Shown here piece by piece: positions 3,526-23,155 of a stretch of 23,155 nucleotides of DNA (positions are counted from its first letter, which is position 1; the number at the start of each line of letters is the position of its first letter). This stretch comes from a virus: UHGV virus genome UHGV-0138245, one strand, 5' to 3'. A program made the translations under genes and the position numbers. Under the pieces are notes generated by a model, which did no database searches, had not been told where the DNA came from, and saw only the letters and a list, made by a program, of their open reading frames with translations.

Positions 3526-3543
3526 TGTATCAGTGCTGATACA
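3526..3543 (-). promoter_or_regulatory. Late-promoter activator site (TGT-N12-ACA dyad) upstream of V
   Basis: TGTATCAGTGCTGATACA lies inside the 9-bp inverted repeat TTGTATCAG/CTGATACAA, 46 bp before the V start codon; this is the geometry of Ogr/B-dependent P2-family late promoters. Confidence 0.55.
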
Positions 3544-3547
3544 AAGA

Positions 3548-5316: not shown

Positions 5317-5317
5317 T

Positions 5318-6026: not shown

Positions 6027-6029
6027 AAT

Positions 6030-6233
6030 TCAGTCCCATAGCTGGACGGTTTGCACGGTGGTGGTGGTCGGAATGTCCGGCAGCTCCACCTGCAGCCCGT
6101 GAGGTAAAAAGGGGCCATATTCGGCAAGCCCCGGATTTGCCTTCAGTACCTGCTCCGTGACACCCTGCGTGCGCCCGTAATGACGCCAGCAAAGCGCGTC
6201 CACCGTGTCATACTGATGCGCACGCACTTTCAT
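6030..6233 (-). CDS. Tail protein X (P2 gpX-like)
   Basis: 67-aa ORF between L and the holin, same size and position as P2 gpX. Confidence 0.7.
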   Translation of the reverse strand: MKVRAHQYDTVDALCWRHYGRTQGVTEQVLKANPGLAEYGPFLPHGLQVELPDIPTTTTVQTVQLWD

Positions 6234-6697: not shown

Positions 6698-6792
6698 GCT
6701 GCTTTCTCCTGAAATAGAGGGCGGTGGACGGGGTTTTGATGTGGCAGCGCCTTTCGCCACCCCGTGCCGCCCGTGCGCGGGGGCACGTTCTG

Positions 6793-7443
6793 TCAGCGGC
6801 TGTCATTGCGCAGTCTGCGCTCCAGCTGCTGTTTGTCTTTTTTCACGCCACAGCGGGGATCGAGCTGTAACGCATGGTTGAGATGATTAAGGGCGGAAGC
6901 CGGATTAGTTTCACTCAGGACAACGCCAATCGCTTTATGCAGACGCGCCCGTGACTGGTCCGGCATATCCAGACCGTCTGTCAGCTCCAGCGTCTGCAGC
7001 AACAGATCGACATCAAAGCCGGTGGCGGCAAGCATTGCGCTCTGCGCAGCGTCTGCCATTTCCTCTGCCAGCACGGTCTGCACATTGCGATTACCCAGCG
7101 GCATCACCCAGCCATGACGCAGGGCATGACGCCCGATCTGCAGCGCCCCGGCATAATCTCCGGCATCAATGCGCCACAGCATCACGTACATCAGCACGTC
7201 ATCCTGTTGAGCGCCTCCGGCAGCCAGGACACCCTCCGCCCAGGCGGCGTATTTCGGCAGCAGTTCCACCTTGATTTCCGCTTTTTTGACCGTGGACTGA
7301 ACGCCCTTGAGACGGCGGCGGTCTTCCGCCAGTTGCAGCAGCATCAGGTCATAGCCCGACGCGTGGCGAACGCTGCCGCCCTCACGGGCGGCCTGTTCAG
7401 CCTGAACGCGCAGGCGATGCTGCCGTGCGGGACTCAGGCTCAT
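6793..7443 (-). CDS. Terminase small/endonuclease subunit (P2 gpM-like)
   Basis: 216-aa ORF between N and L, the gpM position in the O-N-M-L order. Confidence 0.75.
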   Translation of the reverse strand: MSLSPARQHRLRVQAEQAAREGGSVRHASGYDLMLLQLAEDRRRLKGVQSTVKKAEIKVELLPKYAAWAEGVLAAGGAQQDDVLMYVMLWRIDAGDYAGALQIGRHALRHGWVMPLGNRNVQTVLAEEMADAAQSAMLAATGFDVDLLLQTLELTDGLDMPDQSRARLHKAIGVVLSETNPASALNHLNHALQLDPRCGVKKDKQQLERRLRNDSR

Positions 7444-7446
7444 GGG

Positions 7447-8505
7447 TTACGCTCCGGCTTCTGCTGCGGCGGCGCTGAAATCGCCAATCTGGATGTTTTC
7501 CACCAGCGCAGCGCAGCGGTAGTCCTCAACCACATAGGCTTCGTTAACAGATTCAAAGTTTTCAATCCGGTCACGTTTCGGGTTGTCGATAACTGAACGG
7601 CGGCGGGTGTCTTCCTGCCAGTAGATGGACAGGTTATCCAGACGGGTGATCAGCAGCGCATTCGGCGGGAAGAACGGCGCACGCACGGCCTGCAGACCGC
7701 CCATGCGTTTCTGACTGATAATCATATCGGCTGCCAGTTTTTCACTGTTTTCCTGCTCTTTGTTGACCAGCGGGAAATACTTGTCAGACAGCAGTTCACG
7801 ACCGCAAATCACCACCAGATCGTCATCATCCTGGTAGACCACGTCGATAAGCTCATTGACCGCATCCATCACTACAGCGTCCAGGTTGGCATATTCGCCA
7901 CCTTTCCCGACTTTCACCGCACCCGGTGTGGTTTCGCCGCCCGTGGTGGTGCTGCCCATGACGTGATCCGGTGCATCCTCACGGATTTTCTGCAGCCAGC
8001 CTTTGTTCACATCCTGCAGCAGCGGGTTTTCACTACGGTTGGAGGTTTTCGCACGCTTCACGCCGTTAAAGCCGATCATGATGCGGTCCAGTGCCTGACG
8101 TTTCACGATGGCGTCACGGATACGCACCTGGAAATCCTGAAACTTCGCCCACAGGTCCAGCTTCGCGTAGGTCAGCACCGTGTCAAAGTTGGTCTGCTCG
8201 CATTTATATTCCACATCGACCATCAGCGTCGGATCGACAGGTTCACGCTCTTTCGCGGTGGTGTCAGTGGTTCCGGCAATGGTGCTGCCAACACCCAGCC
8301 CCAGCAACTGACCGGACTGCTCAGTCACTGGCGTGACGTTAATCAGCGTCAGGAAGGCGGCGGACTGCTGGATCTGGTCTTCCAGCGTCTGCTGCACAGA
8401 CGGCTCCACAGTGAATTTGCTGGACAGTTCTTCAACTGCCACACCGTTCAGACGCGCCAGCTGCTGCAGGTAAGCGTTAAAAGCAAAGCGGGTATTCTTC
8501 TTCAT
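7447..8505 (-). CDS. Major capsid protein (P2 gpN-like)
   Basis: 352-aa ORF MKKNTRFAFNAYLQQLARLNGVAVEELSSKFTVEPSVQQTLEDQIQQS..., a pattern close to P2 gpN. Confidence 0.9.
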   Translation of the reverse strand: MKKNTRFAFNAYLQQLARLNGVAVEELSSKFTVEPSVQQTLEDQIQQSAAFLTLINVTPVTEQSGQLLGLGVGSTIAGTTDTTAKEREPVDPTLMVDVEYKCEQTNFDTVLTYAKLDLWAKFQDFQVRIRDAIVKRQALDRIMIGFNGVKRAKTSNRSENPLLQDVNKGWLQKIREDAPDHVMGSTTTGGETTPGAVKVGKGGEYANLDAVVMDAVNELIDVVYQDDDDLVVICGRELLSDKYFPLVNKEQENSEKLAADMIISQKRMGGLQAVRAPFFPPNALLITRLDNLSIYWQEDTRRRSVIDNPKRDRIENFESVNEAYVVEDYRCAALVENIQIGDFSAAAAEAGA

Positions 8506-8521
8506 CGGGTTTTGTGCTCCA

Positions 8522-9355
8522 TCAGCAATTGGTCAGAGTGTCAGCGGGGGCGTTACCGCCTGTTGCACGCTGGCGGTAGTCCTGGCGGCTGTCTTCATGA
8601 CTCAGCTTGTCCACCAGTTCGTTAAAGGCGGTCTGCTGTGCCTGCAGGGCAGTCTCCAGCTCAGACAGGCGTTCTTCCTGCTCAGACAGGGATTTTTCGG
8701 TGCGTGCGCTCAGGTTCTGCTGCTCAGTGGCGACCAGCTCCACGGCCTTATGCACATCAGAGAACCGGGCGTCATCGGACTGCTCTTTTTTGGTAAACAG
8801 CGCCGTGACGCGGGCAAACAGGGACGGTTTGTCGTCCTGGACTTCTTCCAGTTCGATCACCGTTTCCTCTGCAGCGGTAAAAAGATTGGCGGGATTCTGC
8901 TTGCGGTTTGCCAGCGGGTTATGGGCTGCACTGGCGCTGAATGTCAGCATTTCCGTACCCAGACTGGCGGGATCATCAGTGGCAGCCAGGCCGACCAGAT
9001 AGGCTTTGCCCGTATCAGCGAACTTCGGGCTGACTTCCATAGAGGTGAATAATTTCTGGCCTTTTTTCACCAGTTCCACCAGGGACTCCGTTGGCTCAAC
9101 GTCGGCATACAGCGCCATCTTGCCTGCCAGCGGACCTTCCGTGATTTCTTCAGCAAACAGCGCCGTCACCTTGCCGTAGCGGTTAAAGGTGCTGTCCGGC
9201 AGATAAGACTTGATGTGCTCAAGGTTAATCAGCGCGGTATACACCGCCGGGTTGTAGCTGGCTGCCATCTGTTCCAGCCATTCACGCTGGATTTCGCGTC
9301 CGTCGGTGGTGGCACCTTCCACCCCGATGCGAAAACGCTTTGCTTTCACTGTCAT
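8522..9355 (-). CDS. Capsid scaffold protein (P2 gpO-like)
   Basis: 277-aa ORF, first gene of the leftward late operon, divergent from the terminase; Shine-Dalgarno GGAGCA upstream. Confidence 0.85.
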   Translation of the reverse strand: MTVKAKRFRIGVEGATTDGREIQREWLEQMAASYNPAVYTALINLEHIKSYLPDSTFNRYGKVTALFAEEITEGPLAGKMALYADVEPTESLVELVKKGQKLFTSMEVSPKFADTGKAYLVGLAATDDPASLGTEMLTFSASAAHNPLANRKQNPANLFTAAEETVIELEEVQDDKPSLFARVTALFTKKEQSDDARFSDVHKAVELVATEQQNLSARTEKSLSEQEERLSELETALQAQQTAFNELVDKLSHEDSRQDYRQRATGGNAPADTLTNC

Positions 9356-9433
9356 GAGCCGTGCTCCGTTAGAAAAAACTTACTGGAGCCTTATGGTTGC
9401 GGTGATAGGGGCAGTGAAACAATGCGCGGTATT

Positions 9434-9451
9434 TGTACCGACAACCACACA
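9434..9451 (+). promoter_or_regulatory. Late-promoter activator site (TGT-N12-ACA) upstream of terminase P
   Basis: TGTACCGACAACCACACA lies 46 bp before the P start codon, the same spacing as the V site; it is in the divergent O/P intergenic region. Confidence 0.5.
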
Positions 9452-9497
9452 AACCGCAGGCGGGGAAAGCATTCATTCAAGGCTGTAGGTTTGTGCC

Positions 9498-11264
9498 ATG
9501 AACACCACACTGACACCCGCAGATCTCGATCCCCGTCGGCAGGCCATGCTGCTGTACTTTCAGGGATACCGCGTCGCCCGCATTGCTGAAATGCTGGGCG
9601 AGAAAGTTGCAACCGTTCACAGCTGGAAAAAACGCGACAAGTGGGGTGACTATGGGCCGCTGGATCAGATGCAGCTCACCACCGCCGCACGCTACTGCCA
9701 GCTCATTATGAAGGAGCACAAAGAAGGGAAAGATTTCAAAGAGATTGACCTGCTGGCGCGCCAGTCGGAGCGCCACGCGCGGATCGGCAAGTTTAACAAT
9801 GGCGGCAACGAAGCCGACTTAAACCCTAACGTCGCCAACCGCAACAAAGGCCCACGCCGTCAGCCGGAAAAGAATGTTTTCACCGATGAGCAGATTGAGA
9901 AGCTGGAAGAAATCTTCCATTCCTCCATGTTCAACTACCAGCGCCACTGGTGGGAAGCCGGAAAAACCAACCGCATCCGCAACCTGCTGAAGTCACGCCA
10001 GATCGGCGCGACCTTTTACTTTGCCCGTGAAGCCCTGATTGACGCTCTGCTTACCGGACGTAACCAGATTTTCCTTTCTGCCAGTAAGGCACAGGCCCAC
10101 GTCTTCAAACAGTACATCATCGACTTTGCCAAAGAAGTGGAGGTGGAGCTGAAAGGCGATCCGATGGTGCTTCCCAACGGGGCCACACTGTATTTCCTCG
10201 GAACCAATGCCCGCACGGCCCAGAGTTACCACGGCAACCTGTATCTGGATGAATATTTCTGGATACCGAAATTCCAGGAGCTGCGCAAAGTGGCTTCCGG
10301 TATGGCTATTCACAAAAAATGGCGACAAACCTATTTTTCCACGCCATCCAGCCTGACCCACAGTGCTTATCCGTTCTGGTCCGGTGCGCTGTTCAACCGT
10401 GGACGCAACAAAGCTGACAAGGTGGACATCGACCTGTCCCACAGCAATCTGGCCCCCGGCCTGCTGTGCGCAGACGGGCAATACCGCCAGATAGTCACCG
10501 TGGAAGATGCGGTGCGCGGCGGCTGTAACCTGTTCGACCTCGACCAGCTACGCATGGAGTACAGCCCGGACGAATACCAGAACCTGCTGATGTGCGAGTT
10601 CGTGGACGATCTCGCGTCCGTGTTCCCGCTCAGCGAACTGCAGGCGTGCATGGTGGACAGTTGGGAAGTCTGGACCGACTTTCATGCACTGGCCCTGCGC
10701 CCGTTTGGCTGGCGCGAGGTGTGGATCGGTTATGACCCGGCAAAAGGTACGCAGAACGGCGACAGCGCCGGATGCGTGGTGGTGGCACCGCCAGCCGTGC
10801 CAGGCGGTAAGTTTCGCATTCTTGAGCGTCACCAGTGGCGCGGGATGGACTTCCGCGCCCAGGCGGACGCCATCAAAAAACTGACCGAACAGTACAACGT
10901 GACCTATATCGGCATCGACTCGACAGGTGTCGGTCACGGGGTTTACGAGAACGTGAAAGCGTTTTTTCCAGCCGTCCGGGAGTTTGTCTACAACCCCAAC
11001 GTTAAAAACGCCCTGGTACTCAAGGCCTACGACATTATCAGCCACCGCCGTCTGGAGTTTGACGCCGGACACACCGACATAGCGCAGTCATTTATGGCAA
11101 TCCGTCGCGCCACCACCGCCAGCGGCAACCGCCCGACCTATGAAGCCAGCCGCAGCGAAGAAGCCAGCCACGCCGATCTGGCCTGGGCAACGATGCACGC
11201 TCTGTTTAACGAACCGCTGCAGGGCGAGTCCGCCAATACAAGCAATATTGTGGAGATTTTTTGA
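9498..11264 (+). CDS. Terminase large (ATPase/nuclease) subunit (P2 gpP-like)
   Basis: 588-aa ORF with the P2-type terminase ATPase core (KSRQIGATFYFAREALIDALLTGRNQIFL, LYLDEYFWIP, YFSTPS) and a C-terminal nuclease region. Confidence 0.9.
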   Translation: MNTTLTPADLDPRRQAMLLYFQGYRVARIAEMLGEKVATVHSWKKRDKWGDYGPLDQMQLTTAARYCQLIMKEHKEGKDFKEIDLLARQSERHARIGKFNNGGNEADLNPNVANRNKGPRRQPEKNVFTDEQIEKLEEIFHSSMFNYQRHWWEAGKTNRIRNLLKSRQIGATFYFAREALIDALLTGRNQIFLSASKAQAHVFKQYIIDFAKEVEVELKGDPMVLPNGATLYFLGTNARTAQSYHGNLYLDEYFWIPKFQELRKVASGMAIHKKWRQTYFSTPSSLTHSAYPFWSGALFNRGRNKADKVDIDLSHSNLAPGLLCADGQYRQIVTVEDAVRGGCNLFDLDQLRMEYSPDEYQNLLMCEFVDDLASVFPLSELQACMVDSWEVWTDFHALALRPFGWREVWIGYDPAKGTQNGDSAGCVVVAPPAVPGGKFRILERHQWRGMDFRAQADAIKKLTEQYNVTYIGIDSTGVGHGVYENVKAFFPAVREFVYNPNVKNALVLKAYDIISHRRLEFDAGHTDIAQSFMAIRRATTASGNRPTYEASRSEEASHADLAWATMHALFNEPLQGESANTSNIVEIF

Positions 11265-11971
11265 TGCCCCCAATCCCAACTAACCTCATGACTATCGCGG
11301 GACTTCCGGTGGATAGCTCTTTCTTTGCTTACCAGTATGAGTGGAACACTGGCCCAAAGAGTAGAAACCGTGTACTCACAAAAATGCGCCAGGCAGGCGC
11401 GGATTTCTTTTTTTCCTATGAAGCCCTGAACGATGCACTGCATACCGGGCGTAACCAGATTTTCCTCTGCTGCAGCACAGCATCTGCGCAGGCAATCAAA
11501 GCCTATGTGTCAGCATTCTTAAGCCAGGCCGCAGCTTATACGCACACTGGAAAAATAAAATCAGGCAAAAGTCATCTGGAGCTTCCGAATGGTGCGGTCA
11601 TTTATTTTTTCGACCTCAAGTGCCACGCCACCGCACTCAGTGGAAATGTCTACGTGTCAGAGTATGCCTGGTCTGAATCACCGAGAAATATGATTGCCCT
11701 GGCTAAAGGGATTTCTATGCACGCACGCCACCACGCCACCTACTACACCACTCCCAGCCCTAACCCGGAGGCATGGCAGGAATTTAAAAAGTTAAGCAAA
11801 AACAACAGTGTAACCAGCATGGTGTTTACCGCTGATGACGCAGCAGCATCAGGAGCAATGTTGTTTACTGATAACTGGCTGAACGATATGAAAAAAGAAT
11901 TATCAGCAGAGGACTGGAAAATGCTGTTTATGTGCGAATGGCCTCTCGCAAACGAGGAGCTGGCAGAATGA
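11264..11971 (+). CDS. Terminase-ATPase-domain paralog (truncated terminase-like protein, function unknown)
   Basis: 235-aa ORF whose ATG overlaps the P stop (TGATG) and whose stop overlaps the Q start (ATGA). It aligns to the central ATPase core of the adjacent terminase (HTGRNQIFLCCS, ELPNGAVIYF, VYVSEYAW, YYTTPS, MLFMCEW) but lacks the N-terminal ~130 aa and the nuclease domain. Confidence 0.75.
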   Translation: MPPIPTNLMTIAGLPVDSSFFAYQYEWNTGPKSRNRVLTKMRQAGADFFFSYEALNDALHTGRNQIFLCCSTASAQAIKAYVSAFLSQAAAYTHTGKIKSGKSHLELPNGAVIYFFDLKCHATALSGNVYVSEYAWSESPRNMIALAKGISMHARHHATYYTTPSPNPEAWQEFKKLSKNNSVTSMVFTADDAAASGAMLFTDNWLNDMKKELSAEDWKMLFMCEWPLANEELAE

Positions 11972-13017
11972 GCAAACGTAAAAACACCAAGCAGGTAACA
12001 GTTGATCACAACACAAAACCAGGCAACAGCCCAACGGCTGAGGCTTTCAGCTTTGGTGATCCCATTCCTGTACTGGACCGCCGCGAGCTGCTGGACTATG
12101 TGGAATGCGTACAAATGGATCGCTGGTATGAGCCGCCCGTCAGCTTTGACGGACTGGCGCGTACCTTCCGCGCCGCCGTGCACCACAGCTCCCCGATCAG
12201 TGTTAAGCGTGACATTATCAGCAGTACCTATATTCCACATCGCCTTCTCAGCCAGCAGGCATTTACCCGTTTTGTGCAGGACTATCTGGTTTTTGGTAAC
12301 GCCTACCTGGAGAAGCGCACGAACCGTTTCGGTGAAGTTATTTCGCTGGAGCCTGCACTGGCAAAATACACCCGGCGCGGGCTTGACCTTGAAACATACT
12401 GGTTTGTGCAATACAGCCTGACAACACAGCCGTATCAGTTCACAAAAGGTAACGTCTTCCACCTGATGGAGCCGGATATCAACCAGGAGATTTATGGTCT
12501 GCCGGGTTACCTTTCTGCCATTCCGTCAGCTCTGCTCAACGAGTCCGCCACGTTGTTCCGTCGTAAGTATTACATTAACGGCAGCCATGCAGGCTTCATC
12601 ATGTACATGACCGACGCCGCGCAGAACCAGGAGGATGTGAACAACATCCGCAAGGCAATGAAAAGTGCTAAAGGACCCGGCAACTTTCGCAACCTGTTTA
12701 TGTACTCGCCTAACGGCAAAAAAGATGGCATTCAGATTATCCCGTTGTCGGAAGTTGCGGCGAAGGATGAATTTCTGAACATCAAGAACGTCAGCCGCGA
12801 TGACATGATGGCGGCTCATCGCGTACCACCACAAATGATGGGCATCATTCCCAACAACACTGGCGGCTTTGGTGATGTGGAAAAAGCGAGCCGTGTCTTC
12901 GTTCGCAATGAACTGATGCCACTGCAAAAGCGACTGCAGGAGCTGAACGACTGGCTGGGTGAAGAAGTGATCCGTTTCGAAGCCTATGACTTAGGACTTA
13001 AGGGCAAACGAGGCTGA
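11968..13017 (+). CDS. Portal protein (P2 gpQ-like)
   Basis: Track ORF 11932..13017; the ATG at 11968 (MSKRKNTKQ...) gives 349 aa, close to P2 gpQ, and lies downstream of the terminase as in the P2 P-Q operon. Confidence 0.9.
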   Translation: MSKRKNTKQVTVDHNTKPGNSPTAEAFSFGDPIPVLDRRELLDYVECVQMDRWYEPPVSFDGLARTFRAAVHHSSPISVKRDIISSTYIPHRLLSQQAFTRFVQDYLVFGNAYLEKRTNRFGEVISLEPALAKYTRRGLDLETYWFVQYSLTTQPYQFTKGNVFHLMEPDINQEIYGLPGYLSAIPSALLNESATLFRRKYYINGSHAGFIMYMTDAAQNQEDVNNIRKAMKSAKGPGNFRNLFMYSPNGKKDGIQIIPLSEVAAKDEFLNIKNVSRDDMMAAHRVPPQMMGIIPNNTGGFGDVEKASRVFVRNELMPLQKRLQELNDWLGEEVIRFEAYDLGLKGKRG

Positions 13018-13054
13018 CATACTCATAACATCAATAACTGACCAACTCTCACAA

Positions 13055-13088
13055 CGCCTCAGCAGCATTCTGCGGGGCGTTTCTTTTT
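13055..13088 (+). terminator. Intrinsic terminator after the portal gene
   Basis: GC-rich hairpin CGCCTCAGCAG/CTGCGGGGCG (one bulge) followed by TTTCTTTTT. Confidence 0.55.
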
Positions 13089-13177
13089 GCCCTTACATCT
13101 CTCCCCCAACACCAAATGAGGCCGCCAGCGGGCCAAAGGCTGCGCCGGATTTTAGCCATTTCCCCCCGTTGCGCGCG

Positions 13178-13196
13178 CTCGTATCCCCGCCACGCC
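13178..13196 (-). other. Candidate cos (cohesive-end) site
   Basis: Reverse strand reads GGCGTGGCGGGGA..., matching the first 13 nt of the P2/186 19-nt cos as I remember it, about 160 bp past the portal stop (P2 cos is about 140 bp past Q). The cos sequence is recalled, not looked up. Confidence 0.4.
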
Positions 13197-13239
13197 TGCA
13201 CGCTTTATGTAGTGGTTTTCATGCACCTGCATGATCTAC

Positions 13240-13265
13240 GCAAAAGCCCGCCAGTTCTGGCGGGC
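13240..13265 (-). terminator. Intrinsic terminator downstream of the SOS operon
   Basis: Perfect 9-bp stem GCCCGCCAG/CTGGCGGGC followed on the - strand by a short T-run (TTTTG). Confidence 0.5.
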
Positions 13266-13400
13266 CTTAGCAAAAACGATCCTCAAACGATCATGCGATC
13301 TCATGCGGCATAGACATGCACTACAGAGCTAACGCCTCGCAAGGGCTCGTTGTTCAACCTTGCTGACGCCAGAAACAAGTTCAGACGCCAGCAACGTTTC

Positions 13401-13634
13401 TTAATGCAGCCAGCTGTCGTCTTCCCACACCTTCTGCATAATTTTCATCACTTGTTTTCTTTCTTCGTCCAGTTGCAGTCCGGTCAGTTCCACACCGTTA
13501 GAGCTACCTTTGCGGATACGAATTACCGTTTTGGGATACAGGGGGCGCAGATTGCGGTAAAGCTCGGATTCAAGGGCGTCCAGTGTAGACTGGCTAATCT
13601 TCTGCTCTTTATCGATCATTATTTCAATGCGCAT
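13401..13634 (-). CDS. dinI: DinI-family protein
   Basis: Internal ATG with AGGTGA Shine-Dalgarno; MRIEIMIDKEQKIS...LDALESELYRNLRPLYP...KQVMKIMQKVWEDDSW parallels E. coli DinI (MRIEVTIAK...WESADDW). Confidence 0.75.
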   Translation of the reverse strand: MRIEIMIDKEQKISQSTLDALESELYRNLRPLYPKTVIRIRKGSSNGVELTGLQLDEERKQVMKIMQKVWEDDSWLH

Positions 13635-13644
13635 AAAAGTCACC

Positions 13645-13833
13645 TCAGCTGATGACATCCATTGAGCGGTTGTATTCGTGGGTTCTGATTTTTGCCATGA
13701 GTTCATCTGTCAGTTCAGAAACCCACTGCAGGGCCAGCCCCTTCTCTTCATCACTACACTCACTAGCCGCTACAAGCTTAAGAAAAAAATCAATGCGCTG
13801 GAGCTTCAAAGACTCCAAAAAATAGTCCTGCAT
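13645..13833 (-). CDS. Small SOS-operon protein (possible Tum-like antirepressor N-terminal module)
   Basis: 62-aa ORF with GGAGGAAAG Shine-Dalgarno, directly downstream of a LexA box and overlapping the extended DinI frame. Function inferred from position only. Confidence 0.45.
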   Translation of the reverse strand: MQDYFLESLKLQRIDFFLKLVAASECSDEEKGLALQWVSELTDELMAKIRTHEYNRSMDVIS

Positions 13834-13873
13834 CTTTCCTCCTATGACACCAAAGCAATACTGTATACATAAC

Positions 13874-13893
13874 CACTGTTTATATTTACAGTA
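13874..13893 (-). promoter_or_regulatory. LexA (SOS) box and promoter for the small-ORF/DinI operon
   Basis: CACTGTTTATATTTACAGTA fits CTGT-N8-ACAG; a second half-site (TACTGTATACAT) lies at 13859..13870, just upstream of the operon RBS. Confidence 0.7.
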
Positions 13894-13985
13894 TATAATA
13901 ATCTTACTGATGTAAAACGTTTTTTTACGCTCATCAGCCTGATATGCCTGGTATTATTAAGAGCACGAATTGTTAACCCGCGTAA

Positions 13986-16400
13986 TTAATACAGGTTTCG
14001 CCACTTATCATCTTCCTGCAAACGCTGGTTCCGATAGAAGATACGCAGGCCTGCTCCTGACGGAATACTGCCACCGCGAAGGAGTAAATCTACCTCTTTC
14101 TCGCTGCCATCAAATCCTCTGGACTTCAGTTCATAGACGAGCTGCTGTCGTTGATGGTCTGTAATTCGCTGTTTGTAGTTTCTACGCCGTTTCGGTTTCA
14201 CCAGGCGTAACCTTGCAGCCAGTTCCCGGCGCTCTTTTTTGTTCATACTGTGCAGAAAATCGTGCAACTCCTTGTCATCCATGCGGGTAACATCCGTTCT
14301 GGTGTCCCCATCAGCTGATTTATCTTTCTCCTGTTGGTTCAAATTTTCAGCAAGGGGACAGTTATTGCCACGAGTCCAAGGGGCGCAAGCGCCCTGGTCG
14401 GCTGCCGCCTCCTGAACGTCAACGGCCTTACGAACCATTTTCCACTTCACTGCATGAGTACAGATCTTGCCCTCTGCAATGGGTGACCAGATGCCATAAA
14501 TACGAATGCCGTGATCGCCATAGGCGGTCGGCTCTTCGTTGATTTCATAAGCGGTTCTGATCAGGTGATATTTGCGGGGAACCAGTACGCCGCCCTGCTT
14601 CATGATGTAGGTGGCAAAACAACCAGCATCAGCAGCAGCCAGGATTGCATCAAGGCGCGGGTTATCCAGTACCGGCGCACCTGCTTTTTTGTCCCCCTGT
14701 TGCCTTGCCGCCTGACCAGCCAGCAATCGCAGTTCACGGTAAGCCTGACGCCCCGGAATGCCAAAGAAGCGGAATTGCTGAACACGATGCAGAGACGCCC
14801 AGGCATTAACGTATTCAGCATTATCACGCAGGGATTTCCCCGTTTCCTTGCTGATCTCGCCAGCCAGACCACGCCCGTCAATGTTCTTACTGATGTATTT
14901 CGCGATGTAGCTTGTTGGCGTACCTTTGCGCGGGTTAATCAACTCAGACTTAAAGCGCGGCCCAGTGTTATTGCCCAGCTCCTCGCGGTCTTCACGGATG
15001 GCAAACTTACGCAGTAATGCAGTGATGGCGCGGCGGTCTTTTTTGCGCATAAAACACAACAGGTGCCAGTGAACTGTACCGTCATGATGCGGCTCAGCCA
15101 CCCGCACGCCATACCAGCGCAATCCGGCTTTGTGCATCGCCTTACGAAATGCAGCAAACATGCCGACCAGGTAATCACTACTTTGTCTTACCGTCGCATT
15201 TGTCCAGGTTGGGTTGGGCCTGCCGTTATTTAGCGTGGAATGGAAACGTGACGGACAGGTGATGGTGTAGAAAACGGCGCAGTCACCGCGCATTTCCGCG
15301 ATAAGCTCCAGACCTTTAACACAGGCCATCATCTCATTGCGGCGATGCGCAGGGTTGCTGCTGCTGGCGTTTACCACATCCTCCATGTCCAGCGTGTCGC
15401 CGTCTTCGTTCACCAGTTCATGAGAACGGAAAAACTCCAGCGACTTACGGCGCTGCTCACGTTTATGCATCACGGCTTCATAGCTGACATAAGGAGATGC
15501 TTTTTTGCTGACCAGGCAGACAGCGCGCAACTGCTCTTCCCGCCATTCGCAACGCATCTTCCATAATTTCCGGTACCACCAGTCGGCGCACAACATACGC
15601 GCCAGCGAACCCGGAATGAGTTCATAGGGCACGGGTTTACGGCGGTTTCTTTTCCGACGGAGTTGCTCAAACGCAGGCGGGATAACATCCAGACGCAGGG
15701 TTTCCGCTGCCACCTTTTCCCATGTCTTGCGGATTTCTTCTGGCTTAACGTCATCGGTGGCATACAAATCACCACAAGCTGCATCAAGGCACATGCTCAT
15801 ATGCGCAGCGACAAGGGTAGACAGGCGCTTCACCTGATCCTGACTCATTTCAGGCAGGATAAGCAGGCCATCCAGCCCTTCATGGCTTGCCATAAAGCGA
15901 AAAGAAGCGGATAGCTGACTGTCGCGTACATGCTCCAGTCGTTCCAGACATGGCTTAATCGTCTCACGCAAATAGCGGGAATAAGCCTTTGGCCTGCCCA
16001 GGCTGCTGAAGTATTCAATACGTTGCATCAGCGGCTTGCTGATATGGGAAGGCTGGGCATTGACGTCCGCCAGAATGACCATATCTGGATTAAAACGCTG
16101 CTGCTCATGCGCCAGCTTTGCCCGACTAATGAGCTTATCCTGCTCCATTTCGCGCTGGACAGGATCACGGGATTCATTAAAGAAATAACGCTCCCAGACC
16201 TGATCACTCAGTACCTCGCGGCGCAGGTGTTCCTGCTCGTTATCGGCAGCGTACAGAGCGATCAGGTTTGAAAGCGTAGAAACCGGCGCAACTTCCGCCG
16301 GGTCCAGATAAGGGTTAATGGCCTTTTTCGGGCTGTTCCATGAGAACGATGCGGCAGCTTCGTTAAAGCCGCAGCAGTTGTTCATATCGGCATGACTCAT
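13986..16400 (-). CDS. A: Replication initiation protein (P2/186 gpA-like rolling-circle endonuclease)
   Basis: 804-aa ORF with HUH-type motif ([10 protein letters not shown]) and a paired-tyrosine motif (YIAKYISKN); start overlaps the dam stop (ATGA). Confidence 0.85.
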
Positions 16401-17254
16401 GCACGTACTCCGTACACGGCAGAACTATCCACGCCACGCGAATAATCAAATCCCACCCAGCAGCGCGGCCCGGAAACAGCAATGATTTCTGTTGCTGATT
16501 TACCCTCGCCAGCTGCCACACCGATGCTGCGTTTTGCCTTGATGTAGTGGTGAGTAAAATTGCGATACAGCGAACGGATCAGGGATGTGTCACTGTTAGA
16601 AACAATGACCGGATGTCCTTCTGATGACCGATGTTCAAGAACGGATGCCAGGTGATACTGGTCATCTTCAGTGAAGCCGTCAGTGTGATAACCGGAAAAC
16701 GTGCCGTCATACGGCGGATCGCAATACACCACATCCCCCGCCTTCAACATCGCCAGCGTTTCATCAAAGCTGGCGCAGATAAACGTTGCCCGCTGGGCTT
16801 TTTCTGCAAATGCGCGAATTTCTTTTTCTGGGAAATACGGATTTTTATAATTACCGTAGGGAATGTTGAAATGCCCGCTCTTGTTATAGCGACATAAACC
16901 ACGGCAACCGTGACGATTGAGATACAGGAAATATACCGCTTTCATGAAATCAGTAATTTCATTTGAGTAATTAAACTCCTGCCTTATGTTGTAATAAGCC
17001 ACCTCCCTGTTTGCTTCCTTAAATAAAACTCTGGCGCGAGATATAAACGATTCACAATCAGCGGCAACCTTTTTATAGAGGTTGATTAAATCAGGATTAA
17101 TATCCGCAACCAGATAGCTTGGATAATCCGTCTCCATCATCACAGCACAGGAACCCGCGAAAGGTTCAACCAGTCGCGGGCCAGCAGGAAGGTGTTTTTT
17201 CAGTTCAGACATAATTGCGGTTTTATTCCCCGCCCATTTCAGGATGGTGCTCAT
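16397..17254 (-). CDS. dam: DNA adenine (N6) methyltransferase, Dam family
   Basis: First ATG ([11 protein letters not shown]...) has a GGAGGTG Shine-Dalgarno; contains FAGS-type SAM-binding motif (EPFAGSCAV) and the catalytic DPPY motif (YCDPPYDG). Confidence 0.85.
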
Positions 17255-17478
17255 ACAGCACCTCCGTTGTAATGTTTGCCTTTCAGTTCTGCGATTTCCT
17301 GACAGGTAATGCAAAGCTGCACACCCGGAATGGCACGGCGGCGTGCTGGCGGAATTGGCGCTTCACACTCAACGCAAAGCACGCGGGACACGCCCGGCGT
17401 TTTGGCACGGGCAGCACGGATATGACGTTGGCGTTCTTCTTCAACTCGCTGCTGTACGAGATCCATTGCATCAGCCAT
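17251..17478 (-). CDS. TraR/DksA-family C4 zinc-finger protein
   Basis: 75 aa with CVEC-x18-CITC; a similar small zinc-finger ORF sits upstream of A in P2. Confidence 0.7.
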   Translation of the reverse strand: MADAMDLVQQRVEEERQRHIRAARAKTPGVSRVLCVECEAPIPPARRRAIPGVQLCITCQEIAELKGKHYNGGAV

Positions 17479-17711
17479 CAGTGGATCTCCTGCGCTTCGT
17501 TCTGGATTGCTTCAGCAGTCACACGCAGCAGTTCTGCCGCTTCGACGTGGTTTAGCTGGCGGGATGTGATATGACACGCCAGGCTATCAAGGCGAACTGC
17601 CATTGCTTCAGCCCTTGCCCGGCGTTCTTCCAGACGAGCCTCTGTCAGTAAAATATTAAGCCCTGCATCATCCGGTCCGGTTTTAGTCGTGAGGGTTTCA
17701 ATATTACGCAT
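17478..17711 (-). CDS. Hypothetical early-operon protein
   Basis: ATG at 17711 with AGGAG Shine-Dalgarno; 77 aa; stop overlaps the next gene start. Confidence 0.5.
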   Translation of the reverse strand: MRNIETLTTKTGPDDAGLNILLTEARLEERRARAEAMAVRLDSLACHITSRQLNHVEAAELLRVTAEAIQNEAQEIH

Positions 17712-17778
17712 AATCAATTCTCCTGAATTTAGATAAAGGGATGCCCGGCGGGTTTACGCCATTAATTTCATTAGTTGG

Positions 17779-18120
17779 TTAATTCGGCATGGTTAGCCGT
17801 CTGGGAAATAAGCTCACCACTGCACGAAAATGATTCATTGCTTTAATCAGCTCCCGCTTTTCGTCAGTGGTCAGCTCATTAATGCTGATGCTATGACGTT
17901 CAGCTGGAATTTTTGCCATAAAGAATATGGCAGCCAGTGCCCGTTTATTTTGTTCATTATTGATATCCCGTGGATCACGCATATCTTTAATAAACCGCTC
18001 AAGCTCTGACTCAATATTCAGGCCAAATACTTTCGCCCTTAACTCCGCAATGTGATTAAGTCCATTCAGGCGTTCACCGGGGCTTAATGGAACAGTCGCC
18101 GCAGCGCCTTCAATAGCCAT
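17779..18120 (-). CDS. Hypothetical early-operon protein
   Basis: 113-aa ORF with a G-rich Shine-Dalgarno, co-directional with cII. Confidence 0.5.
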   Translation of the reverse strand: MAIEGAAATVPLSPGERLNGLNHIAELRAKVFGLNIESELERFIKDMRDPRDINNEQNKRALAAIFFMAKIPAERHSISINELTTDEKRELIKAMNHFRAVVSLFPRRLTMPN

Positions 18121-18284
18121 TTGTTCCCCCGTTTTTTCGTTGATAGTTCTGCCAGCAATTCATCTTGTGAACGGCACGGATGCCAGCGTTTACCATCCTT
18201 ACCCATTATCCAGCCGTGACCGTAGTGCATTGCCGGGCTTTGTTTTACCAGCAGCGATGCAAATGATGGTTCTTTCGTCAGCAT
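18084..18284 (-). CDS. Hypothetical small early protein
   Basis: ATG at 18284 with GAGGTG Shine-Dalgarno, just after the cII stop; 66 aa; overlaps the next ORF. Confidence 0.4.
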   Translation of the reverse strand: MLTKEPSFASLLVKQSPAMHYGHGWIMGKDGKRWHPCRSQDELLAELSTKKRGNKWLLKALRRLFH

Positions 18285-18291
18285 AAGCACC

Positions 18292-18801
18292 TCACAGCAA
18301 ACCGAATGAAGCACCGAGGCCAGTCACGGTATCAACTGCACTCGCCATCGCAGGGTTAGCCTGTAAACGGGCCTGCAATGAAACAGCAGCCAGCGCCATC
18401 AGTCGTGTTACAGAGTTAATGCTGCTGATAGCATCACGACGACCTGCACTGGTTTTTACATCGCCAGATACCGCACCTGCAGCAACACGCCCGATCTCTG
18501 CGGTTGCACTCATGACGTAATGCGGCAGTTTCTCTTTTGCTACCTCATTAATAGGTACACATGGCAGGCAGTGAATCTGTGCCAGAAAACCATCTATCAG
18601 CGTTGAATCTTCAGTCAGATCGGTAAGCAGCCAGATTTCTGGCGCATTGAGCTGATGCGGTTGATCTGGGTTGAGTTTGTTTCGCAGAGTCTGGACATTC
18701 ATTCCTGCACGTTCTGCCAGCTTCGCCATATTGTGACGAAGTGCAAAAGCTCTACAGGCTTCATCAAAATGCGGGTGTTTGGAAATCTTATAATCAAACA
18801 T
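18292..18801 (-). CDS. cII: CII-like lysogeny-establishment regulator (phage 186 CII-like)
   Basis: 169-aa ORF with a helix-turn-helix (MAKLAERAGMNVQTLRNKL); second gene of the rightward early operon; resembles 186 CII as I recall it. Confidence 0.7.
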   Translation of the reverse strand: MFDYKISKHPHFDEACRAFALRHNMAKLAERAGMNVQTLRNKLNPDQPHQLNAPEIWLLTDLTEDSTLIDGFLAQIHCLPCVPINEVAKEKLPHYVMSATAEIGRVAAGAVSGDVKTSAGRRDAISSINSVTRLMALAAVSLQARLQANPAMASAVDTVTGLGASFGLL

Positions 18802-18833
18802 GCTACCCCCTTAGAAAGTTCTCATAATTGAAC

Positions 18834-19076
18834 TTACTTACCAACAATGACGCGGAAGTTGGAATGACCGAGGGATTCACGGACCTGATCGGTTTTGTAC
18901 ATCAGATAACGCAGGCTTACGCGGCCTTTGTTTTTTTCTTTCTTGACCATGTATTTAGCAAGCTGACCATGGTGAATTTTTTGATACACGGAGCCGCGGG
19001 AGATACCTTCCCATTCCGCGAACTCTGCAGGCGTAGCCATCTCTTTTGGTACACGAATTGAAATATCAGTACTCAT
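18834..19076 (-). CDS. apl: Apl/Cox-like excisionase and early-promoter regulator
   Basis: 80-aa helix-turn-helix protein, first gene downstream of the pR-like promoter and divergent from the repressor gene. Confidence 0.6.
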   Translation of the reverse strand: MSTDISIRVPKEMATPAEFAEWEGISRGSVYQKIHHGQLAKYMVKKEKNKGRVSLRYLMYKTDQVRESLGHSNFRVIVGK

Positions 19077-19114
19077 AGTGCAGTATCTCTTAGTTTGGTT
19101 TCGTTTTATCTTGT

Positions 19115-19149
19115 TTTATGTGGTTTGGTTTTGCTTTTCAAACCATAAA
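19115..19149. promoter_or_regulatory. Candidate repressor operator (imperfect inverted repeat) in the switch region
   Basis: TTTATG(T)GGTTTG ...N11... CAAACCATAAA, just downstream of the pR -10; flanked by GGTTTGGTTT-like direct repeats. Coordinates could be off by a few nt. Confidence 0.4.
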
Positions 19150-19152
19150 TGG

Positions 19153-19181
19153 ATATTAGGATCACTTTTTATATGCGTCAA
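19153..19181 (-). promoter_or_regulatory. Early lytic promoter (pR-like)
   Basis: On the - strand, TTGACG -35 and TAATAT -10 with 17-bp spacing, about 70 nt upstream of the apl start. Confidence 0.5.
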
Positions 19182-19192
19182 GGGGTTTGATT

Positions 19193-19825
19193 ATGAGTTT
19201 GATCAAGGCGGGAAATGATAGTGGTGGGCGCGATGCAATTAACAGGCTTATTAAGGCTTACAACTTCAGCTCACGACAGCAGCTCTGCGAACATCTGGAG
19301 GTATCCAAAAGCACTATGGCTAACAGATACTTAAGGGATAGCTTTCCTGCCGAATGGGTAATTCAATGTGCCCTTGAAACAGGAGTTTCCCTTCTATGGC
19401 TGGCTACTGGTCAAGGAGATATGTATGCGTGTGAGAACGAAGAAACAAATCTCAAAAATGAACCTCCCGTCACTGTAAGACCACTTTCTAAGATCGTTGC
19501 TCCTAGCATCAAACGTGTTGAACTGAAGAACGGCGAACTGCAGGCAAGTGATGAAATTCTTCTTGATAGCAGCCTGCTCGATGGTGACTCATCCAACGCT
19601 TTATTTGTTAAAACAGCTAATAATAGCTTTGTAGTGGATACGTCCGTTAAACAAGTCAGTAATGGCTTCTGGTTAGTCGATATGGACGGAGTTAAAAGCA
19701 TCGTCAAAATTGCGCGCATACCCGGAAACAAAATAGTAGTTAACCAAGATGACACTTCATTTGAATGTTCTGTAGATGATGTGGAAGTCGTAGGACGTGC
19801 AGTCAAAGTAATCAAGAACCTCTAA
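19193..19825 (+). CDS. cI: CI immunity repressor
   Basis: ATG at 19193 with AAGGGG Shine-Dalgarno (track ORF starts at a TTG six nt upstream); helix-turn-helix near the N-terminus; directly upstream of int and divergent from apl/cII, as in 186. Confidence 0.75.
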   Translation: MSLIKAGNDSGGRDAINRLIKAYNFSSRQQLCEHLEVSKSTMANRYLRDSFPAEWVIQCALETGVSLLWLATGQGDMYACENEETNLKNEPPVTVRPLSKIVAPSIKRVELKNGELQASDEILLDSSLLDGDSSNALFVKTANNSFVVDTSVKQVSNGFWLVDMDGVKSIVKIARIPGNKIVVNQDDTSFECSVDDVEVVGRAVKVIKNL

Positions 19826-19828
19826 CTT

Positions 19829-20845
19829 ATGACCATCAGAAAACAGCCGAACGGAAAATGGTTGTGTGAGTGCTATCCCAATGGACGCAATGGTAAGCGC
19901 GTGCGTAAGCAATTTGCTACCAAAGGCGAAGCCATTGCATTTGAAAGCTTCACCATGGACGAAGTAAACAAAAAGCCATGGCTTGGTGAGAAGGAAGATC
20001 GGCGGCGATTATCAGAAGTGATTGAGCAGTGGTATTCCCTATATGGTCAAACACTCGCAGACCCCAAACGCCTGATGGCGAAACTTAGAATTATCTGTAA
20101 TGGTCTAGGCGATCCCATCGCCTCTGAGCTGACAGCAGGTGATTTCACAAAATATCGGGAAGCCAGATTAAAGGGGGAGGTCCAAAATGAAGACGGCTCG
20201 TTCATGTCACCCGTTAAACCTCGCACAGTTAATCTTGAGCAGCGTAACCTGTCATCGGTGTTCGGTACATTGAAAAAACTAGGGCACTGGTCCGCACCAA
20301 ACCCGCTGGCAGGGCTTCCAACCTTCAAAATTGCTGAAGGTGAATTGGCTTTTCTTTCCACGGACGAAATCAAACGCCTGCTTAATGCCTGCGCCGAATC
20401 TCAAAACACCAGCCTACTAATGATTGCAAAAATATGCCTGGCTACTGGTGCGCGATGGAGTGAAGCAGAAAACTTGCAGGGCCATCAGTTATCAAAATAC
20501 CGGATCACCTATACCAAGACAAAAGGTAAGAAAAATCGTACCGTGCCGATATCTCAAAATCTGTATGATGAACTCCCCAAGAACAGAGGGAAACTATTCA
20601 CACCGTGCAGAAAAGCCTTTGAACGAGCAGTAAAGCGAGCAGGCATCGAGCTACCAGAGGGCCAATGCACCCACGTGCTGCGTCATACATTCGCCAGTCA
20701 TTTTATGATGAATGGCGGGAATATTCTTGTCCTTAAAGAAATATTGGGCCATGCCGATATAAAAATGACGATGGTTTACGCACACTTTTCTCCAGACCAT
20801 CTAGAAGATGCTGTTACAAAAAATCCTTTACATAATTTGGTTTAA
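19829..20845 (+). CDS. int: Tyrosine integrase (P2/186 Int family)
   Basis: 338-aa ORF with the catalytic signature (ATGARWSE; HVLRHTFAS H-x-x-R; MVYAHF catalytic Tyr). Confidence 0.9.
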   Translation: MTIRKQPNGKWLCECYPNGRNGKRVRKQFATKGEAIAFESFTMDEVNKKPWLGEKEDRRRLSEVIEQWYSLYGQTLADPKRLMAKLRIICNGLGDPIASELTAGDFTKYREARLKGEVQNEDGSFMSPVKPRTVNLEQRNLSSVFGTLKKLGHWSAPNPLAGLPTFKIAEGELAFLSTDEIKRLLNACAESQNTSLLMIAKICLATGARWSEAENLQGHQLSKYRITYTKTKGKKNRTVPISQNLYDELPKNRGKLFTPCRKAFERAVKRAGIELPEGQCTHVLRHTFASHFMMNGGNILVLKEILGHADIKMTMVYAHFSPDHLEDAVTKNPLHNLV

Positions 20846-20849
20846 TAGA

Positions 20850-21908
20850 ATGAAAAAAAAGCTCACATTAATCATTACCTACGCAATCATTACTATCTTA
20901 ATTGCCTTAGCATTGATATACACTAATCGTCCAAGAGTTTTTATCTTCTTTAGTGTAGCTTATATACTTGGATTGATACTTATGTTCTATTGCTTCAATT
21001 GGCTTAAACTAAATGAGAAAAATCTATTAAAACAACCATTATTCATAGCATCTATTATCGTACCGTTAAAAATGTTTGTTTTGTATGGCCTCTGGGCTTG
21101 GAAAGGCCACAATTTAAATTTCACATCAGACGGTTTTAATCACTTTCTTGACATCTCTAAATTGCCATTATTTATTTTAGCTTCTTCGGTACCTCTTGCA
21201 GCAATCGTCAACAATATACATAGAACCACACAAACAGAGAACCAAATAGAAAAAACACAAAAGCAAATCAATCTTGTTATTGAAAAAAACACCACTGATT
21301 CATATTACTCACATCTGAAAAGCTTCGCTGATATATTCCAAACACTACCAACATTTAAATTATCAAGATTAAATAAAGAAACTAGTGATATAGACAGTAT
21401 TGAACTATCTGTAGTTCATCCGTACACTCTTTATAAAAATATTTTCAAATCATCTTCCATTGATAATGGCTATAGCACCGCTGTCGAAGAAGATTTTATT
21501 CGAAAAACAACAAATCATTATAACAACATAAACAAATCGCTTAAGTCCAACAACAAAAATCATGACAACCAATTAGTTAGCCTACAACTCATAGAATCAA
21601 ACATAATTCAACTTTGCAGACTACTTGGAATTGATTATAAATACCAAGAACATCTTTTCTCAATAATTCCTGAACATCCAAAACCAGATACGGAAGCCAT
21701 AAGCATCTCATTCAATGATGAAAAACAACTAAAGCAAATGCTTTGGGGACTAAGAAATATTCTCATTGAGTTATATGTTTTAATCGACAAGGACCCCTCT
21801 ATCTTCCAAACAGGTAAAAGCAATGGTGATTACATACCTGAGTACGCACTATATGACGAAAAACTCTTTACAAGCATTTTACCTATATCAAATGACCAGC
21901 GCATTTAA
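20850..21908 (+). CDS. AT-rich membrane protein of unknown function (cargo gene between int and att)
   Basis: Real start MKKKLTLIITY... 5 nt after the int stop; four predicted N-terminal transmembrane helices then a ~230-aa Lys/Asn-rich soluble domain; ~28% GC against ~45-55% for its neighbours. Confidence 0.7.
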   Translation: MKKKLTLIITYAIITILIALALIYTNRPRVFIFFSVAYILGLILMFYCFNWLKLNEKNLLKQPLFIASIIVPLKMFVLYGLWAWKGHNLNFTSDGFNHFLDISKLPLFILASSVPLAAIVNNIHRTTQTENQIEKTQKQINLVIEKNTTDSYYSHLKSFADIFQTLPTFKLSRLNKETSDIDSIELSVVHPYTLYKNIFKSSSIDNGYSTAVEEDFIRKTTNHYNNINKSLKSNNKNHDNQLVSLQLIESNIIQLCRLLGIDYKYQEHLFSIIPEHPKPDTEAISISFNDEKQLKQMLWGLRNILIELYVLIDKDPSIFQTGKSNGDYIPEYALYDEKLFTSILPISNDQRI

Positions 21909-22021
21909 TGGCGACAAAGTGGCGGCAGAGCATTAAAAACGCATAAAACATATAAACAGTAAATAACACTAAAGGACTGTTTTTAAACGTAATTCACTGT
22001 TTTTATTACAGTAAAAATAGT

Positions 22022-22066
22022 ATGTAGGAATTTCGGACGCGGGTTCAACTCCCGCCAGCTCCACCA
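22022..22066 (+). other. ssrA: att core: 3'-terminal 45 nt of ssrA (tmRNA), fragment only
   Basis: ATGTAGGAATTTCGGACGCGGGTTCAACTCCCGCCAGCTCCACCA matches the E. coli tmRNA 3' end (T-arm, acceptor, CCA) as I remember it; no 5' acceptor strand or tmRNA body upstream. Confidence 0.8.
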
Positions 22067-22112
22067 AAATTCTCCATCGGTGATTACCAGAGTCATCCGA
22101 TGAAGTCCTAAG

Positions 22113-22146
22113 AGCCCGCACGGCGCAAGCCCTGCGGGCTTTTTTG
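22113..22146 (+). terminator. Intrinsic terminator downstream of the ssrA 3' end
   Basis: 8-bp stem AGCCCGCA/TGCGGGCT followed by TTTTTT. Confidence 0.6.
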
Positions 22147-22269
22147 TGCCCTCAATTTGTCCCGCGAAGTCCGAAGAGAACTGATTAAATCCGAACCTTT
22201 TAGGCCCATTGATAGGCCCAACGAAAAGCTCTATTGTTTTCGTTGGGCCTAAACGCATGGAGACTCCCC

Positions 22270-23103
22270 ATGGCAAGAAAAACCAAGCCGTTAACCGATA
22301 CGGAAATCAAAGCCGCCAAACCTAAAGATGCCGATTACCAGCTGTATGATGGTGACGGGCTTACTCTGTTAATCAAGTCCAGCGGTAGTAAGCTCTGGCA
22401 GTTCCGTTACTATCGACCTCTGACCAAGCAGCGAACCAAGCAGAGCTTCGGAGCCTACCCAGCCGTCTCCCTTTCTGATGCGCGTAAACTCAGAGCTGAA
22501 TCTCGAGTTTTGTTGGCAAAAGATATTGATCCTCAGGAACACCAGAAAGAACAGGTGAGGAATTCTCAAGAGGCCAAAACCAACACCTTCTTGTTAGTTG
22601 CCGAGCGTTGGTGGAATGTGAAGAAAGCCAGCGTAACAGAGGACTATGCCGACGATATCTGGCGCTCGCTTGAGAGAGATGTTTTCCCAGCAATCGGTGA
22701 TATCAGCGTCACTGAGATTAAGGCTCATACTCTAGTTAAAGCTGTTCAGCCGGTACAGGCCAGAGGTGCATTAGAGACTGTTCGCCGCCTTTGTCAGCGT
22801 ATTAACGAAGTCATGATTTATGCGCAGAACACAGGCCTGATTGATGCAGTTCCCAGTGTAAATATCGGAAAAGCGTTCGAGAAACCGCAAAAGAAAAACA
22901 TGCCGAGTATCCGTCCGGATCAGCTTCCACAGTTAATGCAAACAATGCGTACAGCAAGTATCAGTATGTCAACGCGGTGCTTGTTCATGTGGCAGCTTCT
23001 CACCATTACCCGCCCTGCCGAAGCCGCTGAGGCACGATGGGATGAAATCGATTTCAGTGCTAAAGAATGGAAAATTCCAGCAGCTCGTATGAAGATGAAC
23101 TGA
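22270..23103 (+). CDS. intA: P4/CP4-57-type tyrosine integrase (IntA-like), C-terminally truncated; probable pseudogene
   Basis: MARKTKPLTDTEIKAAKPKDADYQLYDGDGLTLLIKSSGSKLWQFRYY... N-terminus about 200 bp after the ssrA end. The ORF stops after ...IPAARMKMN (278 aa), before the H-x-x-R and catalytic Tyr motifs. Confidence 0.75.
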   Translation: MARKTKPLTDTEIKAAKPKDADYQLYDGDGLTLLIKSSGSKLWQFRYYRPLTKQRTKQSFGAYPAVSLSDARKLRAESRVLLAKDIDPQEHQKEQVRNSQEAKTNTFLLVAERWWNVKKASVTEDYADDIWRSLERDVFPAIGDISVTEIKAHTLVKAVQPVQARGALETVRRLCQRINEVMIYAQNTGLIDAVPSVNIGKAFEKPQKKNMPSIRPDQLPQLMQTMRTASISMSTRCLFMWQLLTITRPAEAAEARWDEIDFSAKEWKIPAARMKMN

Positions 23104-23155
23104 ATCGCCACGGGTTTAACAGACACCTCAGAGTCATTTAAGATGGCTTAAAGAG

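Follow-up and report, generated by a model that had tools for sequence, protein, structure and literature searches.

A leftover 3' end of ssrA at the junction between a Fels-2-like prophage and a CP4-57-type island in Escherichia coli

In the stretch of 23,155 nt that was analysed here (the window), positions 22022..22066 on the plus strand repeat the 45 nt at the 3' end of ssrA, the gene for tmRNA. Comparison with annotated genomes confirmed that, as far as sequence can tell, this segment is a leftover ssrA 3' end marking the junction between a prophage and the E. coli chromosome, immediately ahead of a CP4-57-type island. We consider it highly probable (roughly 0.92) that the junction represents the fragment-bearing side ("attR" in the convention used for tRNA genes) of a Fels-2-like, P2-family prophage integrated at the ssrA 3' end, with the island following behind. 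The sequence identities, the homology of the two arms and the map of the same locus in complete genomes were all observed directly. The upstream flank of the segment is a phage attP arm, and the downstream flank is the chromosome as it is found past ssrA.

The ssrA-derived segment, the att core and the phage arms

The segment at 22022..22066 (+) reads ATGTAGGAATTTCGGACGCGGGTTCAACTCCCGCCAGCTCCACCA and occurs only once within the window (0 copies expected, from 100 shuffles). An earlier sequence-only reading had recognized in it the 3' end of tmRNA, comprising the T-arm, the 3' strand of the acceptor and the CCA, and had proposed its alignment to the host gene. The alignment bore this out: the ssrA 3' ends of E. 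coli KE58, CUWW06 and K-12 are identical to 22022..22066 at 45 of 45 positions, and in alignment with the Rfam tmRNA model the segment takes up the 3' side of a helix, the T-arm, the 3' half of the acceptor stem and the terminal ACCA. The left limit is exact, position 22021 being t where ssrA has g.

The same reading had interpreted the 45 nt as an att core left by integration into ssrA. Integration into ssrA is well supported by a 45-nt copy that lacks the gene body and is flanked upstream by phage attP arm DNA, and the core is indeed derived from ssrA, but the block of identity shared by phage attP and ssrA spans 47 bp (22022..22068, +) and not 45, as arm comparison and the Fels-2 annotation both indicate. 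Two A's are gained beyond the 45 nt, where the phage far arm reads CCACCA-AAtaaatc and the host arm reads CCACCA-AAattctc. The Fels-2 record annotates attP as 24 + 23 = 47 bp, which is the same size as 22022..22068. The core of about 18 nt that is used by the CP4-57-type island falls within the 45-nt copy as well as the 47-bp block, because the right end of CP4-57 in K-12 (its distal repeat) is CTCCGCCAGC-CCACCA. Since this island core lies in it, the 45-nt copy is a junction for both the phage and the island.

The phage-derived arm on the integrase side, 21909..22021 (+), was delimited by alignment with the attP of phage Cartapus, the left half of the Fels-2 attP and the junctions of KE58 and CUWW06. 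It contains conserved AT-rich blocks and ends in ...AAAAATAGT ahead of the core. Two TGGCG motifs (21908..21916 and 21919..21927) were invariant in all five aligned sequences, were seen again in the phage far arm (GTGGCGGCAAAATGGCGACAG), and resemble the reverse complement of the arm-type consensus of the 186 integrase, YAYCGCCAYTY, which is annotated in NC_001317. It is plausible from these sequence features that they are candidate Int arm-type sites.

On the far side of the core, the attP of Cartapus continues from the identical 45 nt into AATAAATCAAGGGGTTACGTGAAAGCGTAGCCCCTTTTTC, a phage-borne terminator, and the same AATAAATCAAGGGGTTACGTGAAAGCGTAGCCCCTTTTTC lies directly 3' of the complete ssrA in KE58 and CUWW06. 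The rebuilt ssrA of lysogens therefore ends in a phage terminator, because the phage attP carries its own terminator after the ssrA copy. The ogr-side arm of the phage includes ...CCACCAAATAAATCAAGGGGTTACG.... That the window might hold a free phage attP was ruled out; its downstream arm is the chromosomal ssrA-intA sequence and not a far arm of the Cartapus type. As a separate observation, the far-arm terminator GGGGTTACG...CGTAGCCCC TTTTT was located directly 3' of the attP copy of ssrA (L001 1989..2030; L004 4078..4120), and the first 62 nt or more of the far arm were present in about 800 complete E. coli genomes.

The island side of the junction

Downstream of the copy, 22067..22269 (+) is an arm of chromosome and island origin, made up of the ssrA trailer, the terminator and the intA leader, and it matches the K-12 sequence downstream of ssrA apart from a few substitutions. 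This arm was 100% identical in the E. coli genomes MS 124-1, 537-20 and ECamp52. Over the longer interval 22022..23100, the identity to the ssrA-intA region of these prophage-free genomes was 99.9-100%, and that to K-12 was about 98%. A hairpin at 22110..22143 with the T-run after it corresponds to the native ssrA terminator (22110..22146). The ATG of intA lies at 22270, 203 nt past the CCA, and the gap has the same length in K-12 (203 nt, between the ssrA end at 2755955 and the intA start at 2756159).

Positions 22270..23100 (+) hold the 5' 277 codons of intA, the P4-type integrase gene of a CP4-57-type island, in truncated form, as judged from IntA identity and Pfam. When compared with K-12 IntA (413 aa), 270 of the 277 residues were identical (97%), and Pfam recognized the Arm-DNA-bind_3 and Phage_int_M domains, the catalytic domain being represented by its first third only. 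An IntA orthologue thus lies directly past the ssrA 3' end and its terminator, as expected for a CP4-57-type island; the cargo genes and the distal repeat of the island would lie beyond the end of the window. It had been claimed from the sequence alone that a terminator and then an IntA-like integrase follow at about 200 bp, as in K-12, and that a CP4-57-type island stands in tandem with the prophage; the spacer of 203 nt in both genomes and the 97% identity over 277 residues substantiate both statements.

The intA leader has an additional repeat structure. At 22199..22253, just ahead of the ATG, lie two direct repeats of TAGGCCCA and an inverted repeat whose 15-nt arms match perfectly (TAGGCCCAACGAAAA / TTTTCGTTGGGCCTA); in K-12, the same inverted repeat has one mismatch. 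By their sequence and position, these repeats may be arm-type sites for IntA or regulatory sites of the island.

The reading frame of intA is interrupted by an insertion sequence. Intact intA reads ...ATGAAGATGAAC|CGGGACC, whereas the window reads |TGAATCGCC after the break at 23100/23101. The interrupting DNA, 23101..23155 (+), is the left end of an IS3-family element with the terminal repeat TGAATCGCCACGG..., and the IS end contained in the window is TGAATCGCCACGGGTTTAAC. In strain G4/9, this IS end flanks a gene annotated as an IS3-family transposase, and the inverse repeat CCGTGGCGATTCA is present at the other end. This insertion after codon 277 removes most of the intA catalytic domain, and to judge from the sequence the island integrase has been inactivated by it. 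The exact join of intA and IS was present in none of the 5426 complete E. coli genomes; it was present in two gut-metagenome contigs.

Related loci, integration and order of insertion

The locus can be followed from end to end in complete genomes. In KE58, the order is smpB, complete ssrA, far phage arm, ogr, D ... cI, int, cargo, near arm and the 45-nt copy, followed by atcatgattgg.... This right flank equals the sequence past the right end of CP4-57 in K-12, and therefore KE58 represents an island-free site. In CUWW06, smpB and full ssrA are followed by the prophage, the 45-nt copy, the terminator and intA, the same tandem order as in the window. A full ssrA is found at the ogr/D end in complete genomes that carry a prophage of this family. 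The tandem junction was present in at least 8 of the 5426 complete genomes (392-nt probe, at least 80% coverage), and this is a lower bound, as prophages with diverged arms, for example that of APEC-O117H42, fall below the threshold. The first 212 nt of the far (left) phage arm were found at 80% coverage or more in 173 genomes, in 169 of which the arm was joined to 209 nt of the ssrA body. The window itself begins in the tail-fibre region, and the left end of its prophage, judged from KE58, lies about 10.5 kb beyond position 1; the full ssrA of the present genome is presumably located there, as the sequence-only reading had expected.

A look-up with the exact cargo protein also led to closely matching contigs. 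Window positions 10998..23155 were 100% identical to the gut-metagenome contig ERZ959087 k127_7335 (L010), and 14288..23148 were 100% identical to ERZ963820 k127_17036 (L011). Both contigs come from project PRJNA217052, and their right ends stop at the IS. The same strain thus recurs within this project. Moreover, an isolate assembly (L009) has the same junction next to an intact intA, and another record (L008) has the same phage lineage at an island-free ssrA locus, with 99.3% identity over the final 4.8 kb.

Based on these maps, the following course of integration can be proposed. The phage attP would bring a phage-borne copy of the 45-nt ssrA end together with a terminator, and the phage tyrosine integrase would exchange strands somewhere inside the 47-bp identity block, as we infer from the P2/186/Fels-2 family. 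At the ogr/D end, ssrA would be rebuilt from the host body, the phage 3' end and the phage terminator. The host's own ssrA 3' end and its native terminator would in turn be pushed about 33 kb downstream, beside the cI-int-cargo end of the phage, and this displaced host 3' end would be the 45-nt element at 22022..22066. The DNA past ssrA in the host would already have been a CP4-57-type island; because the island lay downstream of the host ssrA, the displaced copy would be followed by a terminator of the K-12 type and by intA. The 45-nt copy would now double as the phage junction and the left junction of the island.

That the phage inserted after the island is the simpler reading of the locus. 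It is favoured because the same intA allele follows the full ssrA in phage-free genomes, because the phage is intact and recurs at the island-free locus L008 with 99.3% identity over its last 4.8 kb, because the island integrase is apparently dead, and because the full 47-bp block is offered only by ssrA proper. The order is drawn from these circumstances, since none of the examined copies of the 47-bp block differs from the others and the map would be the same either way. The reverse order, with the phage entering an island-free ssrA first and the CP4-57-type island later entering the displaced 45-nt copy, appears improbable. The island core (the last ~18 nt of ssrA) lies wholly within the 45-nt copy, so that in formal terms the copy would suffice as a target; there are lysogens of this phage lineage without the island (L008 and KE58), and an identical final map would result. 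However, the same intA allele (99.9-100%) directly follows the full ssrA in several phage-free genomes, so that the state with the island at ssrA exists without the phage, and intA is IS-disrupted here. The phage is intact and has near-identical copies in different chromosomal contexts, as would be expected of the more recent mobile partner. In addition, nothing intervenes between ssrA and the left phage arm in 169 of the 173 genomes, and if the arrival of islands after phages were frequent, the full ssrA should have been hit as well.

We also weighed an assembly artefact, in which contigs would have been mis-joined at the repeated ssrA 3' sequence. Each lysogen has two or more copies of the repeat, and the records that match best are contigs from short-read metagenomes, but such a chimera is very hard to credit: the repeat is only 47 bp long and the matching contigs bear the label k127, which we take to denote assembly with 127-mers. 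The identical junction was also recovered at 100% from two independent samples (L010 and L011) as well as in the isolate assembly L009, and CUWW06 and 7 further closed, complete genomes have the equivalent junction.

It is equally implausible that the 45 nt form a functional small RNA (a shortened, two-piece or permuted tmRNA, or an IsrM-like sRNA) in place of an inert att scar. Permissive Rfam scanning did return tmRNA, tmRNA_permuted and IsrM at 38.6, 19.6 and 32.1 bits, and the 45-nt segment folds stably together with the terminator (z = -4.8), but all three scores are under the gathering scores of 47, 47 and 376, and the stable fold consists of the T-arm and the native terminator. The tmRNA score comes from the 3' end; pairing with the putative 5' side of the acceptor is partly non-standard, and about 270 positions of the model, the tag reading frame among them, are deleted. 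ARAGORN reported nothing at the 45-nt segment and 0 tRNA and 0 tmRNA in the whole window, in which no Rfam family reached its gathering score either. A functional tmRNA gene, with both acceptor strands, the pseudoknots and the tag reading frame, is accordingly not what the segment represents, and the sequence-only reading was right that the tmRNA body is absent upstream. A gene for IsrM at 22057..22145 was considered separately and ruled out, the match being the ssrA terminator hairpin, which resembles the IsrM terminator of Salmonella.

The displaced ssrA end has its main consequences in annotation. With it, the prophage can end no further right than 22068, and the ssrA-like fragment, which gene finders pass over, is accounted for. 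The integrase that starts at 22270 belongs to a second element, probably the older of the two in view of the order proposed above, which carries the IS insertion in its integrase gene.

In K-12, excision of CP4-57 proceeds by recombination of the working ssrA with a degenerate distal repeat, whereby T357 is deleted and ribosome rescue is switched to ArfA (PMC10107115); the degenerate distal repeat was also seen by us in the K-12 sequence. Tentatively, and with less than even odds, a prophage lying between ssrA and a CP4-57-type island may uncouple excision of the island from inactivation of tmRNA. Excision of the island would scar only the 45-nt copy and leave ssrA intact, because the left junction of the island is the non-functional copy. 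If this is true, recombination with the full ssrA would remove the phage and the island together. Such an uncoupling from the "rescue switch" of CP4-57 is only a mildly new angle, which follows from the map, and it is moot in the present strain because the IS in intA locks the island.

Prophage genes and known systems

P2-family prophages that match the region 1..21900 of the window are present in 1636 complete E. coli genomes, and in 626 of these the match extends over 80% or more of the region. The region contains the P2-family gene set (capsid, terminase, portal, baseplate and the gpA replication endonuclease) at 94-97% identity. The best phage matches were Escherichia phage Cartapus (Elveevirus) and its relatives at about 94-95%, Cartapus itself having 94.7% identity over 85% of the prophage part. 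Towards the junction, the regulatory genes begin with an apl/cox-type excisionase-repressor gene (18834..19076, -; 80 aa), which was assigned by its size and position, as in the "Cox-like excisionase and repressor" of Cartapus and the Apl of Fels-2, and which is also called in the identical contigs. It is followed by a gene for an immunity repressor of the 186 CI type (19193..19825, +; 210 aa), with Pfam domains Phage_CI_repr and Phage_CI_C, which is called in the 100% identical contig L010. The intact tyrosine integrase gene of the prophage (19829..20845, +; 338 aa; Pfam Int_N and Phage_integrase) is transcribed toward the junction. Its product is identical to the Fels-2 integrase at 314 of 337 residues (93%) and to the 186 integrase at 183 of 335 (55%).

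From the sequence, a Fels-2-like, P2-family temperate phage would be the accurate label for this prophage, as it combines an integrase at 93% identity, a 47-bp ssrA-derived core and the P2-family gene set, all of which are features of the ssrA-integrating Peduoviridae of the Fels-2 type. The earlier designation as a 186-like prophage can be kept in a broad sense, for the regulatory module. It does not extend to integration specificity, which is Fels-2-like: phage 186 in the strict sense has a tRNA-Ile target and would call for a near-identical integrase, whereas the target here is ssrA and the integrase identity is 55%.

The arrangement is already known, ordinary and well-documented biology. 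Integration of Fels-2 and SopEPhi into ssrA is listed in Table 1 of PMC10107115 and stated in a passage of PMC3448106 that cites Pelludat 2003. Phage 186 integrates into the tRNA-Ile genes ileY/ileX (PMC3448106; also the record of 186 itself). According to PMC3448106 and Table 1 of PMC10107115 (citing Williams 2003 and Pelludat 2003), elements with P2-type integrases leave perfect displaced copies, and P4-type islands leave degenerate ones; the 47-bp core of Fels-2 and the presence of more than one element at a single ssrA are likewise documented in these sources. For the ssrA of Salmonella LT2, the table gives Fels-2 together with the P4-integrase island Stm27X, which would amount to a tandem array like the present one. 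As ssrA is already known as a much-used integration site with tandem arrays, the present junction is one more example.

The closest parallels are Fels-2 and SopEPhi of Salmonella (Peduoviridae). The likeness covers the integrase (93% for Fels-2), the 47-bp ssrA-derived attP core, the order cI-int-att, the CI/Apl/CII switch of the 186 type and the perfect displaced copy (CGCCAGCTCCACCA), as given for P2-integrase elements in Table 1 of PMC10107115. In contrast to those phages, the host here is E. coli, another cargo gene lies between int and att, and there is an extra ORF resembling the terminase ATPase. With CP4-57 of K-12, the locus shares the terminator, the 203-nt spacer and IntA (97% over 277 aa) past the ssrA 3' end, but the island here adjoins the 45-nt copy and not the working gene, and its integrase is cut by the IS at codon 277. 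Coliphage 186 (Eganvirus) is alike in its P2-family virion genes, its CI/Apl/CII/Fil module, the TGGCG/CGCCA arm-type motifs, a small ORF between int and attP and a truncated tRNA-like segment in attP; it differs in its target (ileY/ileX, not ssrA) and in the integrase (55%). The two also differ in orientation. In 186, the tRNA segment of attP is convergent with int, and int comes to lie next to the restored gene. In the present family, the ssrA segment is co-directional with int, and for this reason int and the cargo lie beside the displaced copy.

The cargo ORF of the present prophage (20850..21908, +; 352 aa), located between int and att, is AT-rich and encodes a protein with a hydrophobic N-terminus. 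Pfam and PADLOC gave no match for it, and its only PHROG match was phrog_17460, of unknown function. This slot is variable: it is occupied by a RES-domain protein in Cartapus, by another hypothetical protein in CUWW06 and by Orf69 in 186. An identical cargo protein was encountered in 34 blocks of the contig collection (24 contigs examined).

An extra ORF of 236 aa (11261..11971, +) separates the portal gene from that of the full-length large terminase (9498..11264) and contains the terminase ATPase domain only (Pfam Terminase_6N, 61.8 bits). It is absent from KE58 and CUWW06; Yersinia phage vB_YpM_MLG42 and Escherichia phage 500465-1 have copies with 69-74% identity, and its identity to P2-family terminases is about 35%. 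The slot between the portal and dinI-like genes (13018..13400, about 380 nt) is essentially empty here. Related prophages fill it with varied large genes, and many of these have domain types that occur in anti-phage defence, including AIPR, TIR, SEFIR, DUF262, AAA ATPase, KAP NTPase and Cap4 nuclease.
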